A stretch of 64,000 bases of DNA from Myxococcota bacterium. GTDB lineage: Bacteria; Myxococcota_A; UBA9042; PHBI01; JAWLBL01. Position 1 is the stretch's first letter, and every line of letters starts with the position of its first letter. The stretch lies in NCBI GenBank assembly GCA_041687695.1, contig JAWLBL010000031.1:21581-85580 (forward strand). The letters are read 5' to 3'. Below are positions 3,001 to 9,000 of this stretch, piece after piece. The position numbers are program-made.

Positions 3001-6000
3001 GCGGGCCACCAGGAAGAGCAGGTTCGCGGCGTCCAGGCGCGCCACCTGCTCGTCGAAGCGGAACTTGTCCATGATGTCGCGCACGTTGGGCGAAAAGCCG
3101 TGCACGAAGGCGCTGAGGTTCGCCGCGATGTGGGCCGGGTCGTCGCCGAGCCTTTCGAAGTCCAGCCGACTGACGTTGTAGAAGGTCTGGCCGGCCGCAT
3201 CCCGCAGCATCTTCTCGCGCAGGGCGGCGGGGGTCTTGTCGGCGGGGAACTTGGCGTCCGCGGTCAGCACGGCGGCCCGGGTCGGCGCCAGCACCTGGTC
3301 CAGGCGCCGCAGGACCAGGAACGGCAGGATGACCCGGCCGTACTCGCTCTGCTTGTAGTCGCCGCGCAAAAGATCCGCGACCGACCAGATGAAGCTGACC
3401 TTTTCCGAGAAGTTCTGCATGCTTTCCCGTCTCTCCCCGTCGTCTTCGCCCGCCCACCGGCCGGCCTCGTCGCGGCCGCAGCCTAATCGCCCAGGCCGAT
3501 GTTGGGCAACGGGCCATGGCCAGGGCGCCCGCCTTCCGACATGCGCGGCCGGTGCCGAGGGTTGAAGGGACGGCAGGAATCCGTCTATGGCTTGGAGCAT
3601 GAAAGCGACGCTGACCCAGAGGATGGAAGTGGGCCTGGAGCTCGACCTCGGCCTCGGACGCCTGTTCGAGGTGGTGGCGAGGTTCGTCCGCGGCCAGACG
3701 CTGACGGGCGCCGAGCGCAAGCTGGTCTCGGTCTTCGAGCAGGACGGGGCGGCGCTCGGGGCCCGGCTGCTCGAGAGCGAGGACCAGGCGGACCTGTCGA
3801 AGCGCATCGACTCGGCCGTCCGGTGTCCCGAAGTGCACGGGACCGTGCAACAGCTTCTGAGTGCGTTCATAGCGGCCGTGCCCGGCGACGGCCTGCGGCG
3901 TACCATGACGGCCGCGTACAGCCCGGACTTCGTTGGCGGCCTACAGGCGATCGTCGGCGAGCGTTTCCACCGCGAGGCGGACGAGATCGCGCGCCTCATG
4001 GCGGTCTACCTGCGACTCGCCGCCCCGGCGCTCGCGCAGAGCGCACCACAGCCCGAGACCCTCGAATCCGAGTTGCGGCAGCTCGCCGAGCAACTCGACG
4101 ACCCCGACCTGCCGAAGCCATTGAAGGATGCGGGGACTGCACATCTCCGGGTGCTGCTCGTGCAGTTCGCCTTGATCCAGCGAGCGCTCGGACAGCACGT
4201 CGACCCGTGGCTCACGCGGGCGCTGGTCTGCGAGCTGCGCGATGCGGTGAGGACCTCTCTGGCCCTGCTGGTTGCGACCACCGGCGGCGAGGTGTCCGAG
4301 GACCTGCTCGCGCCGTCCCAGCGTCTGGACCTGGAGGCCCTCGAGTTGGAGTACCGGCGCAACCGCACGCAACGTGCGCTCCGGCTCGTCCAGCAGTGGC
4401 AGCACGAGGCGGACGAAGAGGACGAGTGGGTCCGGGATCAGCTCGAGGCCGACGCCGCCGACCTGCCGATGCGCCTTTAGCGAATGAAGCCCGTCCCGGT
4501 ACTGCTCGACACGAGGGGACGGAGCCGTAGCGCACGTCGAGCCCGCCGACCTCGGTCGCCCGGACCCGACCTACCGCCGGCCGACACCGAGCGGGACCGT
4601 AGTCGCCGCGGCGAGGGGCGTCAGTCGTGGCGGACGGTCGAGAGCGCTCATTTTCCGCTTCGGCTCTTGAGGTCGTTGGCCTGGAGGCGGGCAAGGACGT
4701 GATGGCGGGCGGCGTCGAGGACGGCGCGCTCGGCGTCGGCGTAGGTGGCCTCGGCGGGAAGGCCGTCGAGGATGGGCTCGATGGAGCCGGGCAGGTCGAG
4801 GCGCTTGGCGCGCTTGAGGAGGAAGGAGCGGAGCCGGGCGCGCTCGGGCCGGGGGAAGGCGAGCGTGAGGTCGAAGCGGCGCGCGAGCGCGGGGTCGACC
4901 GCGTCGGGGAAGTTGGTCGTGCCGACGACCAGGCCGGGGATACGCGAGTAGTCCAGCTCTTGCATGAGACCGACGACGACGCGGTCGAGCTCGGCGACGT
5001 CCATGCGGTCGCCGCGCTGGCGGCCGAGGGCGTCGAGCTCGTCGAGGAGGAGCACGCAGGGGGTGCGCTCGGCGAAGCGGAACACCTCATGCAAGCGCGA
5101 CGAGGTCTGGCCCAGCAAGGCCCCGAGAATGCCATCGATTCTGACGACGTAGACCGGCAGACCGAGGGTCGCGCCGAGCGCGCGGGCGGTGAGGCTCTTT
5201 CCGCAGCCGGGCGGGCCGGCGAGCAGGAGTCGTGTCCGTCGGGCGATGTCCAGCTCGGCGAGCTCGTCGGCGTAGCGATACTCGGTGACCACGCCGTCCA
5301 ACGCGGCGCGGAGCTCCGCCGTCAGCTCGACCTCGGCGAGCGTGGTGTCGAGCGTCACCGGGGCCAGCGTCTCGGGTACGGCGGCCATGGGCGTGACCAG
5401 CGTGTGGCCCTGGGCTCGAAGCGCGGTCCGAAGCTGGCGCGCCGCGCTCGCGTGACCGCGTCCCTCGGCCTCCTGGGCGATCTCTTCGGCGACGCGCCTC
5501 GCGCGGTCCACGTCGTTGGACCGTAGGGCGCTGAACAGCCGGCTGAGTTGTCGGGTCGAGGCCATGGTCGCCGTCCCTCCCGGACGCGAGGCGGTTTATA
5601 CGCCAACGCCCCGATCGCGTGAAGGGGCCGCAGTGGCGACCGCTTGGAGGGCAAGAGCTGGCACGGTTCCCGGCGCGGCAAGCCGCGCCGCCATGGGGGC
5701 GCGAGCAAGCTCTCGCACTCCTCGGCTCGCGAGTCCGAGACCCCTGCCGAGGGGTCTGGGAAGTTCCCGGCGACCTCTCCTGACCCCTGCCGGGGGGTCG
5801 AAGGAGCTCCCGGGATGGTTTCTGACCCCTCCCGAGGGGTCGAAGAAGCTCGCGGCGAGCTCTCCGGACCCCTCTGGTGGGGTCGAAAGAGCTCCCGGGA
5901 TGGTTTCTGACCCCTCCCGAGGGGTCGAAGAAGCTCGCGGCGAGCCCTTCTGACCCCTCGTGGGGGATCGAGAGAGCTCCCGGGATGGTCTCTGACCCCT

Positions 6001-9000
6001 CACGAGGGGTCGGGGGGAGCTCCGGGGAGCTTCCTGAACCCCGGCGCGGGGGTCTCGCGTTGCAACGAGCCGCACGGAGCCGGGTCGGGTGGCCTTGTGC
6101 GAAGCAGGAAGCCTGTGGCAGGCTCGCCAGACCGGTCCAACCCATCGGGCGAACGCGGGCGATGCTTCGGGTGAGGCGTCGTCTGCGGCGCCGTCACTCG
6201 TGAAGGAGAGCGCCGTGCCAACGGAGCCTTTGGAGGAAGATGTGGAGATCGTGGGGGAGGACGGGGCCGTCGCGCCTCCGTTCGATCCGGCGAAGGGCAA
6301 ACAGTCGTTCGGGATCGTCGCCCCCCGGGTCGAGGCGGTCGCGCCCGGCGACGTCATCCCCATCACCGTGAACCTGCAGGACGCGGCGCACCGGGGGGTG
6401 TTCCTGGGACGTTGGGTGAACGAGCCTTCGCGTCGCGCCCGGTTCGACAAGCTGCACGCCGATCTCTTCGACCCGGCGGCGCTCGACGGGCTCGAAGACC
6501 TGGGCTGGGCCACCTACTACGCGCAGGTCGAGAGCGCCAAGGCGGCGGCTACGGCCGACACGCGACAGATCCCGGCCGAGCTGGCGTCGGCGGGCTATGC
6601 CCAGGCCCGGCGCATGGGTCGCGCGGCCGACTACTGGCTGAGCGACGAGCCCACGGTCGCGCTCGAGTTGGCGTCGATCCGGCAGGGCCGAGGCCACAAC
6701 GACCTGGCCAGCGATCTGCTGCGCTATGCCGACCTGTTCGAGGACCACGCGGCGCTGCTGTCGGTCGACACCAAGAACGTGCGGCCCGACGACCCGAAGA
6801 CGGCGCGCGAGCTGGCCGACCGCATCCTCGAGGCCATCTCGGACAGCCAACAGCCGACGCAGCGCCAGTGGCGCGAGCGCTCGGCGCGGCTGTGGACGCT
6901 GCTCAAGCGCGACTACGACGAGGTGCTGAAGACGGCCCAGTGGCTGTGGCGCAGCGAGCCGCACGTCACGGCGACGCTGCAGAGCATCCATGTGCCGCTG
7001 CGCCGCCGGGCCAAGGCCAAGGCGACGGCTTCGGCGCCCGAGGTCCAGCCCGCGCCGGCCGAGCCGCAGCCGGTCTGAGCCTGTCAGGGACTCGTCCCGC
7101 GCGCCCGTCCTCGGACCGGCGGCCGGCGCGCGGGGGGGCCTCAGCCTCAGGACGGCGCTGTCAGCGCGGGCTGGAGGTCGGTCTGCGAGAAGTCGTCGCC
7201 CTTGAAGAGCAAAGGCAGGCCGGTGGCTTTGGCCAGGGCGTATGAGAAGCAGTCGCCGAAGTTCAGGCGTGCGGGGTGACGGCCGCGGCCATAGCGCAGG
7301 AACGCTTCGCGGGCGAGCTGGGCGTGTGCGACCGTCACCGGGACCGTCTCGACCTCGGCGCCGCGCAGCAGCTCGTCGAGCTCGACGCCGCCAGGCTCGC
7401 CGTAGCGGACGGTGACGACGAGGCCGGGTTCGACGACGGTCGCGGCCGAGATGAGGCAGCCGCTGGCGCGTTCGATGGCGAGCGCGAAGGAGCCAGCCTC
7501 GGGCTCTTGCGCCAGGATGGCGATGACAGCCGAGGTGTCGAGGACGATCACGAAGGCAGACCGTGCTCGTCGTAGCCGAGGACCTCGTCGGGTGAGCGGT
7601 CGTCGAGGACGGGCAGCGCTGCGCAGCGCCGGCCGATCTCCATCAGCCGTTCGGACAGGGGACGCGCGTCTCGCTGGGCGCGCTTGCGCTCCAGCCGCTC
7701 ACGGAGCGAGGAGACGACCGCCTCGGTCAGGGTCTCACCCGTCAACTCGGCCAGCTCCCGCGCCAGCCGGTCGGCCTCGTCGTTCTTGATGCTCAGCGCC
7801 ATCGAAGGCCCCCGGTCTAGAACTCGCATTGGAGTCTAGACACCGGGCGCGTCGAGGTCCAGGCGTGGGCGATCGGCCGGCGCGCGGGGGCGAGCGGGAC
7901 GGCTATTCGAGGCAGCGGGCCTCGGAGACGTGCAGGGACCAGCCGCGGTACATGGCCGGGCCGCGGGGGGCCTCGACGGAGCCGAGGGTGCCGGTCAGGG
8001 TCATGGGGCCGGCGCAGTTCAGGAGGGTGGGGGTCAGGACGATGAGCTGCACCGTGCCCACGTCGGCGTACATCTGGTGCATGGTCGGGACCGGGGCGCT
8101 GGGGGGCGGGACCATGAGCGGGTGGTTGGTGACGCGCTCGGGCGGGGTGAGGCGGGCCTGGACGGTGACGGAGCGGCCGTCGCAGGCGGCCCAGGTGCTG
8201 GGGTCGTCGGCATCGAAGGCGCAGGGGGCGGGGAAGCAGGGCTGCCACTTTCGAGCCTGTTGGGCGGCCTCGGTGACCCAGGCGGGCGGCAAGGCAGCGA
8301 AGGGGCCGGCGGCGGGATCGGCGTCGGGCTGCCAGGGGACCTGCGGGTCGAGCAGGCTGGCGGTCAGCGCCTCGGGGAAGAAGGCCTTGGCGGCGGGGTC
8401 ACCGCGGTGGGCGGCGACGGCGAGCCAGGTCAGGGCCTCGACGTAGCGGGCGCGGTCCCTGGGGGTGGGCGCCGCGCCCTGGAAGGCCAGCGAGAAGGAC
8501 AGCTTGCCCAGCTCGGCCTGCGCCTCGAGCGAGCCGGCGGCGGCGGCCTTGCGGAGGGCGGCGAGGGCCTTCTTCATGGGTGCGGCGCGGTAGTGCTCGC
8601 CGTCGCGGGCTGCGTCGACCAGGCGCCTGGCCTCGGCGTGGGCGGCGGCGGCGTCCTTGGCCTTGGGCTCGGGGCAGCGCAGGGGCTGCCGGGCCTGGGC
8701 GGCGCCCGTCAGGAGCGTCGTGGACAGGACGCCGGCGAGCAGCAGGTGGGACAGGAGCCGCTTCATGGAGACCTCTGGGGGGATAGGCGACAGCTTTGCT
8801 CTCGGGAGACGGCCGCAACGTAGCAAGGAACGCGGGCGGTCGTCACTCGGCGCCGCTGAACCCAAGGCCTGCTAGACCTCGCAGGAAAAGCGAGGCGCGC
8901 TACGGCGTGAGGCCTGGCCCCCGCGGCGGTTGACGGTCGTCGACGGACCCTGCAAGCTGACGATCTCGATTCGTGAACGAGGCCTTGCGATGGGGCGAGG

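Follow-up and report, generated by a model that had tools for sequence, protein, structure and literature searches.

Tandem arrays of 41–44-bp units adjoin, and are copied with, genes for all-helical proteins in Myxococcota

In REP, REPIN and BIME elements with their RAYT genes, one gene belongs to each palindromic repeat family and gene-less copies lie in intergenic DNA. Type III toxin–antitoxin systems carry the array in the leader, with the promoter before it and a terminator between array and gene, and the ribonuclease toxin is neutralised by the array RNA. The sopC centromere of plasmid F (type Ia partition) consists of 43-bp tandem units, 44 and 45 bp in relatives, each with a palindrome; they are four turns apart, with the dimers on one face (PMC3177203). 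TIGR-Tas arrays are built from 36-nt units, in which two variable spacers lie between edge and loop repeats; they contain box C/D motifs and are paired with a Nop-domain protein (PMC12045711). MITEPgRS of Porphyromonas gingivalis is mobile and carries no gene: it consists of tandem units, variable in number, and has the terminal inverted repeats of ISPg1 (PMC2575886).

We analyzed a stretch of 64,000 nt from the genome of a Myxococcota bacterium, called the window in the following. It contains a tandem array of seven units of alternating 43 and 42 bp (5739..6042, no strand assigned), delimited by TRF (period 43/42, 7.1 copies, score 263) and by its sequence, 170 bp upstream of a solitary gene (6215..7078, + strand). 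Units start at 5739, 5782, 5824, 5867, 5909, 5952 and 5994, and the array trails off in a degenerate eighth half-unit to ∼6053. The units, 42–43 bp long and near-identical, alternate between variants A and B; TRF also reports an 85-bp higher-order period. Each carries the palindrome GACCCC..GGGGTC and a second, weaker palindrome ∼21 bp further. The gene starts with GTG at 6215, preceded by a Shine-Dalgarno-like site (6203..6210, +), and encodes 287 aa; an alternative GTG at 6242 would give 278 aa. Between array and gene a loose pattern match suggests a promoter-like site (TTGTGC, 18-bp spacer, CAGGCT; 6095..6124, +), and similar sites precede 9 of the 26 candidate genes found in the genome; a strict sigma-70 scan found none. 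Directly 3′ of the stop codon a GC-rich inverted repeat without a T-run (7096..7134, +) is a possible terminator or stabiliser judging from its sequence, and was not picked up by the terminator scan.

Like sopC, the locus combines an array of ∼43-bp units bearing a palindromic core with the adjoining gene of a proposed binding protein. For this protein, Pfam and NCBIfam gave no ParB or HTH match, and fold searches listed generic bundles only. Unlike in the type Ia operon no partition ATPase is adjacent: the window neighbour encodes a divergent AAA ATPase (PF00004), the array-linked genes are solitary, and there was no ParA among 114 scanned neighbours. Moreover, the loci are chromosomal with at least 20 unrelated copies per genome, the array may stand on either side of the gene, and the unit is not conserved between relatives, unlike the sopC cores. 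The single gene beside a short-period array, the predicted dimeric protein and the pseudo-symmetric unit resemble TIGR-Tas and type III toxin–antitoxin systems. However, the units of 41–44 bp (42–43 in the window) are near-identical and lack the variable spacers of TIGR-Tas; Nop had no match in Pfam and was not among the fold-search results. Unlike CRISPR, the units repeat over their whole length in alternating A/B variants, without unique spacers.

The model of the window protein is all helix without strands (mean pLDDT 90.7): a four-helix bundle (residues ∼115–213) interrupts a second bundle of three helices, which come from the N- and C-terminal parts, with a basic patch at 262–270 and a disordered Pro/Ala/Glu tail. 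Homodimer prediction, with contacts via residues 76–84 and 236–246, yielded a score of 0.50 compared with 0.00 for the best of three controls, on a calibration in which the mark is reached by 20 of 30 homodimers of solved structure but by just 1 of 23 single chains; contacts agreed between runs by at least 76% with a pLDDT of at least 81. The protein is modelled as a probable homodimer. Pfam gave no match for it or its 135 aligned relatives, in agreement with the survey's finding of an array beside a solitary helical gene without a Pfam family. A single-protein search returned 816 matches at E ≤ 0.001; word-indexed protein searches were insensitive. Searches of the PDB by sequence and by fold, and of viral folds, returned generic helical bundles only (best matches Z 8.8, rmsd 2.9, 93 aligned for the window protein and Z 10.5, rmsd 2.5, 103 aligned for a DUF6261 member) and no known DNA-binding fold. 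Avd occurred in both lists (Z 6.1 and 7.7), which we took as a common four-helix arrangement. PADLOC, NCBIfam and PHROGs gave no match on 18 proteins of the set, including no defence match by PADLOC, and Pfam over the candidates found DUF6261 on one gene and otherwise nothing. Of the 26 candidate proteins, 24 have a pI of 4.8–6.0.

Genome-wide, 69 intergenic arrays passed our filter, close to the 65 or so counted before, and the histogram of intergenic periods again topped at 41–44 bp (8, 23, 14 and 10 arrays). As to the spacing that had been described as often not a multiple of three, 49 of the 81 non-redundant units from this and other genomes are not 42 bp long, and the coding-repeat reading was rejected for this reason. 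In 35 of 68 arrays the units are self-complementary (z > 2); in the other 33 they are not clearly so. The 10.5-bp harmonic of the units is 1.29 ± 0.09 compared with 0.96 in 1881 intergenic controls; this signal stems from the present genome (1.43 ± 0.13, n = 47), whereas foreign units alone give 1.10 ± 0.11 (n = 34). We found 26 candidate genes of the window gene's build, 23 of them within 500 bp of an array, although the definition of this set and its array link are partly circular. The survey had described a family of ∼15 members, 12 by HMM; the set exists and is larger, but the window-family HMM finds only nine genes and the 26 fall into several families that do not align with each other. 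Eight of these nine have an array within 500 bp, as against 47 of 1615 genes of comparable size, which upholds the gene–array link. The arrays lie beside the genes, as reported, but not upstream as a rule, since 13 of the 23 are downstream and 10 upstream. Most arrays (46 of 69) are indeed gene-less, but several others that had looked so adjoin a member of another helical family.

The units had been called unrelated in sequence. Many do differ, but not all arrays are unrelated, because BLAST clustering finds gene-less siblings for 12 of 23 gene-linked arrays; at 72% unit identity 7 of the 21 tested have them. The sibling of the window array (G000:C18:86431-86735) is 77% identical, with the similarity restricted to the array. 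Array families usually carry one gene each by BLAST clustering. Within 3 kb of an array lie 7 of 16 PIN genes and 6 of 13 AAA_21 genes, compared with 5.8% of all genes, while Uma2 genes are barely enriched (2 of 16). The surroundings of the cassettes are accessory regions rich in toxin–antitoxin and restriction genes. C38:33860 was taken out of the set because its jackhmmer link was false, and a stricter first look at 300 genomes found no relative of the single gene C38:52646.

DUF6261 enters through one family. The array-linked gene G000:C18:152168 passes the PF19775 cut-off (30.7 bits, also 31.9, vs 27), and alongside this match the profiles of clades B and C match at 99% in hhalign. In contrast, hhalign between the window's family and the DUF6261-bearing clade gave a probability of 0.2–0.4%, no match; the Atlas score is 0.79. 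Models of the window protein and a DUF6261 member show the same helix order and two-bundle layout. Neither families F and I nor the single genes gave a significant profile link to the window's family; for family I, colinear alignments with the two clades, at 0.35% and 1.8%, are no more than a hint. Of the single, distantly DUF6261-like family proposed earlier, we therefore retain that one array-linked family is DUF6261, and do not assign the window's family to it. DUF6261 may be linked to HagB of P. gingivalis.

Such arrays accompany 38 of 73 homologous loci from other Myxococcota, compared with 26 of 400 control loci. The window's family contributes 14 of 26, confirming for this family the link seen before in other genomes, and two further families contribute 13 of 28 and 11 of 19; additional families gave 8 of 24 and 3 of 6, and a held-out set 10 of 20. 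The linkage holds in five separately found protein families. About half of the foreign loci have no array at the thresholds used, and TRF found none at the syntenic loci L118–L120. Each family is absent from most genomes searched (13/201, 27/301, 12/301 and 24/301), the spread being patchy with 1–12 copies per genome. Gene and array are copied as one cassette: the pair L005/L017 is 98.9% identical over 1140 bp, from the edge of the array to a point 17 bp beyond the stop codon, in unrelated flanks, and the pair C1/C6 is 90% identical from the promoter-like site to the array end. These duplicates are direct cases of the joint travel that the survey had proposed.

Such sharply bounded recent duplicates, together with the patchy spread and variable copy number, would suit a non-canonical mobile element, in which the protein, with host recombination or a host transposase, moves gene and array via a circle, leaving permuted arrays, and gene-less arrays are scars or non-autonomous copies as in REP/RAYT or solo LTRs. 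Gene-less arrays match gene-linked ones across the array only, at up to 95% identity, and, as in REP/RAYT, a palindromic repeat family usually has a single gene while its other copies in intergenic DNA have none. We nevertheless consider a mobile element quite unlikely. We found no catalytic fold or residue common to the families, no Y1_Tnp match and thus no HUH/Y1 transposase domain among the 26 candidates, and a model without strands. By eye, neither terminal inverted repeats nor target duplications were evident in L005/L017 and C1/C6; short symmetric ends occur in one array family. Ends like those of MITEPgRS were not seen, and the array here has a cognate gene. Scanning the genome with 21 unit families at 72% identity gave 1–4 whole arrays each and two stray matches inside genes; it found neither scattered single units nor units of the same family on the opposite side of the gene. 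Synteny of some loci extends over four species. In a four-species genus no clean empty site turned up, the loci lying in rearranged regions, and at one site promoter region and array stub persist while the gene is gone, which is read as a deletion. The queries used matched no plasmids, phages or viral contigs.

Unit similarity drops to background below ∼60% protein identity, and at one syntenic site (L127 vs L134–136) the unit is wholly replaced while the period is still 42, so that the earlier observation of a kept period with changing sequence stands. Mean periods by family are 41.4 (n = 9), 42.3 (n = 15), 42.5 (n = 10) and 43.1 bp (n = 16), with direct 21-mers in three of four cases for a fifth family. 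The p-values, 2e-4 (Kruskal) and 0.009 for held-out loci (family F: three of 41, six of 42 and one of 43 bp; DUF6261 clade: seven of 42, seven of 43 and one of 44 bp), overstate the effect because kin are not independent, and it is smaller in the held-out set. The period follows the protein family while the unit sequence changes. Ordinary minisatellites or recombination hot spots, hitch-hiking with a fast-evolving accessory gene and holding their period by slippage without any link to the protein, would account for turnover at constant period through concerted evolution. Genes and arrays both cluster in variable regions, one array was duplicated with 75 bp of a neighbouring gene around a foreign ORF, and the many foreign loci lacking an array also fit. 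This reading is improbable, however: five non-aligning families each keep an array despite background unit similarity whereas other local genes do not, periods hold at 21 or 41–44 bp without drift, and unit cores keep register across 12–13 diverged units. Maintenance of the period as such could be explained by whole-unit slippage alone.

Many arrays lie outside the transcript as predicted from sequence. At L134 and L127 the array is downstream, past a terminator-like hairpin with a T-run. This position bears on the possibility that the array is a non-coding RNA gene, transcribed alone, folded or cut to 42-nt units and acting as an RNA antitoxin (type III logic) or RNP scaffold. Predicted RNA folding of the window array is strong (z −8.3), but palindromic tandem DNA folds well regardless of its role. 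The monocistronic gene with its one array and the toxin–antitoxin-rich surroundings fit this reading. In addition, two species share a gene-less array at 90% identity over 483 bp where flanking coding DNA is 80–84% identical. Yet 18 gene-oriented foreign arrays show no G-U preference on the gene strand (37 G-T vs 53 A-C), Rfam gives sub-threshold hairpin matches only, and periods of two or four helical turns are a measure of DNA. Arrays stand before a promoter-like or after a terminator-like site, not in a leader; with 13 of 23 downstream and the window's promoter-like site between array and gene, their layout differs from that of type III systems. No ribonuclease match was found for the protein. 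We regard an RNA gene as unlikely.

A domesticated host regulator or nucleoid-shaping protein, repressing itself by spreading or looping and controlling genes via gene-less siblings, would make use of the upstream arrays, 10 of the 23, whose ends lie 105–422 bp ahead of the gene, and of sibling arrays in trans; some loci are also stable across a genus. With the majority of linked arrays downstream, no common function among the neighbours of sibling arrays, each family missing from most genomes searched and broken remnants in existence, such a role is very improbable.

The explanation that we favour, with roughly even confidence, is a self-recognising protein-plus-DNA cassette whose dimer assembles in helical phase on its own array, as a selfish or defence module. 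The monocistronic gene would yield a helical homodimer that binds the adjoining array. We infer a stoichiometry of about one dimer per 41–44-bp unit, each 21-bp half taking one protomer, or with a head-to-tail arrangement where the repeats are direct 21-mers; because of this spacing successive dimers would lie on one helix face and form a phased nucleoprotein scaffold. Protein geometry would set the period, and since unit sequence and binding surface would drift together, each cassette would keep a private address. The array would function as DNA, on whichever side of the gene it lies. Cassettes would be copied whole into accessory regions, and arrays without a gene would be what remains after later gene loss. 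Conflict is the most likely purpose, with the array holding or titrating its own protein in the selfish or defence module. Tentatively, and with considerable doubt, these cassettes could represent a widespread, undescribed class: an all-helical dimer as a ruler for a 21- or 41–44-bp period, private addresses that co-evolve as a eukaryotic satellite does with its binder, dozens of orthogonal pairs per chromosome, spread without an own recombinase, and the array as an antidote or sensor retaining the protein up to the loss or degradation of the DNA.

Should the binding model be right, the proteins would represent a new fold that recognises DNA in a sequence-specific and phased manner, with thousands of naturally occurring protein–array pairs orthogonal to one another. 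Bacteria would then offer an example of satellite-like DNA that co-evolves with its binder, DUF6261-type proteins would gain a first function, and a prominent class of intergenic repeats would be explained. In the literature covered, which excludes subscription journals and bioRxiv supplements, we found no description of the gene–array pairing; DUF6261 is mentioned once in each of two papers, and not in connection with this pairing. A relative is carried by Byssovorax cruenta, a cultured species.

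Intergenic tandem repeats of the source genome, analyzed with our own gene calls (5769 genes), show a maximum of periods at 41–44 bp. Of 98 arrays from a first pass, 29 were too short, belonged to other classes or were multiples of simple repeats; the 69 kept by hand filtering have periods of 21–23 or 41–44 bp or multiples thereof. The family HMM identified 9 genes, 8 of them with an array within 500 bp. Beside the remaining arrays we found many more proteins of 237–311 aa that are alike in look and carry a Pro/Ala/Glu tail ending like EPVA. A filter for such tails, run over all genes, selected 28, and 16 of these have an array no more than 422 bp away; this filter is not fully independent, because it was devised once the tails had been seen. 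In the working set, 23 of 26 genes have an array at most 500 bp away, upstream of the gene in 10 cases and downstream in 13, compared with 47 of 1615 genes of like size, a count that is partly circular since arrays led to 15 of the 26 genes. The set comprises family A (9 genes, including that of the window), a clade of groups B, C and D, and several pairs and singles. B and C match at 99% in profile comparison and D at 74–84%, and one member of the clade exceeds the DUF6261 cut-off. No profile alignment was obtained between A and the DUF6261 clade (0.2–0.4%). As modelled, the DUF6261 member shares the order of its helices and its layout in two bundles with the window protein. Common ancestry is likely.

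The window spans 21581–85580 of contig C31. Its array (5739–6042; 7.1 copies, TRF) is built of alternating 43- and 42-bp units that form an 85-bp higher-order repeat. Each unit contains one GACCCC..GGGGTC palindrome and a weaker palindrome half a unit further. The helical-protein gene follows at 6215–7078 (287 aa; the database call starts at 6242 and gives 278 aa). A loose pattern match identified a promoter-like site between the two (6095–6124), where a strict promoter scan found none. A solitary AAA ATPase gene (4648–5565) points away from the array, and at 7147–7805 there is a VapBC pair in convergent orientation; a 73% identical relative of this pair likewise flanks a paralogous cassette on contig C48. 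Further left, the minus strand carries specificity and methylase ORFs (113–3999), which we take from their motifs to be type I restriction-modification-like. At 8930–13116 a 935-aa protein with a Lys-Asn run and a HELTH motif, presumably eCIS-core/DUF4157-like, is followed by a leucine-rich-repeat ORF, possibly as an effector-immunity pair. A 4-bp unit is repeated ten times at 23187–23227.

The window protein has 816 representatives at E ≤ 0.001, and no fitting family for it was found in Pfam, PADLOC, NCBIfam or PHROG. In the Atlas it is surrounded by clusters from Myxococcota that lack a Pfam assignment, the nearest named one being DUF6261 (0.79). The model is all helix (pLDDT 90.7): N- and C-terminal helices form a three-helix bundle, into which a four-helix bundle (residues ~115–213) is inserted; a basic patch comes next, and the tail is disordered. 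Solved and viral structures gave generic bundles at most. A two-copy model reached a dimer score of 0.50 compared with 0.00 for the best of three controls. Among solved homodimers 20 of 30 reached the mark, among single chains 1 of 23. Contact agreement between runs was at least 76%, with pLDDT of at least 81, and the predicted interface comprises residues 76–84 and 236–246. The modelling thus supports a dimer. The candidate proteins are mostly acidic (pI 4.8–6.0 in 24 of 26). In family B (alignment A2) the last helix is followed by a conserved basic run and a DVDPxTGE motif; similar motifs are known from phage recombination proteins.

Beyond the source genome the families are patchy, with local expansions: A occurs in 13 of 201 genomes, B in 27, C in 12, F in 24 and I in 5 of 301 each (own genome counted). 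Byssovorax cruenta and a Sorangium MAG are among the carriers of family A. We inspected 6–30 loci per search among the matches listed, counting arrays of period 20–22, 40–45 or 82–88 bp within 700 bp. Arrays were found at 14 of 26 loci for A, 13 of 28 for B, 11 of 19 for C, 8 of 24 for F and 3 of 6 for I, compared with 26 of 400 control loci, all from the source genome; several loci without an array lie at contig ends, others do not. Among further F loci, 10 of 20 carried an array by TRF. The arrays are located in accessory DNA: an array is present within 3 kb of 7 of 16 PIN, 6 of 13 AAA_21 and 2 of 16 Uma2 genes, compared with 5.8% of all genes. That the proteins are host regulators appears very improbable.

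Unit similarity falls from 0.84 at ≥90% protein identity to 0.63 at 70–80% and reaches background (0.44) below ~50–60%. At one syntenic site, one species has an entirely different unit past a terminator-like hairpin, yet its period is 42 bp. With non-redundant units, mean periods are 41.4 for F, 42.3 for A, 42.5 for C and 43.1 bp for B (p = 2e-4; kin not independent); for family I, 3 of 4 cases show direct 21-mers. A few of these arrays may not be the gene's own because TRF covered whole loci. The family effect recurs in held-out F loci but is smaller (41.8 vs 42.6 for B; p = 0.009; kin not independent). Power at 10.5 bp is raised in the units (1.29 vs 0.96), strongly in the source genome and not significantly in foreign units, and 40 of 81 units contain TCGA, compared with 19% of intergenic controls. 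A minisatellite hitch-hiking beside the gene is an improbable reading. Self-complementarity at z > 2 was found in 35 of 68 arrays, and a G-T pair preference on the gene's strand was absent; we regard a function as array RNA as unlikely.

Gene and array move as one unit, as the sequence comparisons indicate. Loci L005 and L017 are 98.9% identical across 1140 bp, from the outer array edge to 17 bp past the stop codon, between unrelated flanks. Three further pairs (L096/L106, L098/L109, L126/L131) have the same limits at 77–85%; among the 15 pairs compared, one had no match and some were alike in the gene only. C1:369643 and C6:67712 are alike from a point just ahead of the promoter-like site up to where the array ends. 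A perfect 61-bp palindrome (C1:370614–370674, also C6) heads the array of this duplicated cassette; it has one solitary copy (C2:212466), and about ten arrays of the genome contain its core. By eye, the duplicated cassettes showed neither terminal inverted repeats nor target duplications. Some loci are syntenic in four species, so that movement is occasional; a non-canonical mobile element is distinctly unlikely. At L058:2810–5520 (C22:81800–84500) a 41-bp array and ~75 bp of a neighbour gene's 3′ end are duplicated on either side of a foreign 502-aa ORF, which therefore terminates in the neighbour's last residues. This looks like insertion through recombination beside the array.

No candidate gene accompanies 46 of the 69 arrays, and 12 of the 23 gene-linked arrays have at least one gene-less sibling. 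That of the window array (C18:86431) is 77% identical, with likeness confined to the array. A gene remnant lies next to an array at C39:58564, and two 5′-truncated remnants of different helical families stand head to head on contig C54 (L056:3188–3691), as if the middle of a divergent pair had been deleted. At one site in a four-species genus, one species has the cassette and another retains the upstream region and an array stub with the gene gone; gene loss therefore accounts for some gene-less arrays. In the same genus a gene-less array keeps a GGTGTCGA core each 42–44 bp through 12–13 diverged units and is 90% identical in two species, compared with 80–84% for flanking genes. Arrays might also move independently of the gene; a pertinent case is the 21-bp array at C29:101847–102328 and C23:131724–131954, whose left and right units are oppositely oriented about one central palindrome and whose copy without the gene matches at 95% identity and stops inside units.

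By analogy, the simplest account would be that the protein forms a dimer with two-fold symmetry and occupies its own array, with one dimer for every four turns and all on one helix face. Such binding would explain the period and its family dependence, why units are palindromic, why protein and unit turn over together, and why the array can lie on either side. SopB occupies 43-bp units of sopC in this way, on one face (PMC3177203); the assembly proposed here has a like four-turn phase, but the predicted fold is different and no partition ATPase goes with it. In our judgement the binding cassette, taken as a whole, has an even chance of being correct. Its purpose is the weakest step: cassette birth, death and setting point to a selfish or defence module whose array would hold the protein encoded beside it.

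The cassettes do not fit, or cannot be assigned to, the partition, type III toxin-antitoxin, REP/RAYT, CRISPR, TIGR-Tas (PMC12045711) and MITE (PMC2575886) classes. No published description of the gene-array pairing was found in the literature covered, mostly outside subscription journals. New are the finding that several unalignable families follow one rule, the arrays downstream of genes, the limits of the cassette, the siblings that lack a gene, a period that is related to the family, and the dimer model. In contrast to REP elements, dispersed single units were found nowhere in the genome for 21 unit families at 72% identity. Other intergenic repeat classes (periods ~27, 54–58 and 96–110 bp, several contigs) are distinct from the 41–44-bp arrays and, with Y1 transposase genes, probably represent REP/RAYT systems.
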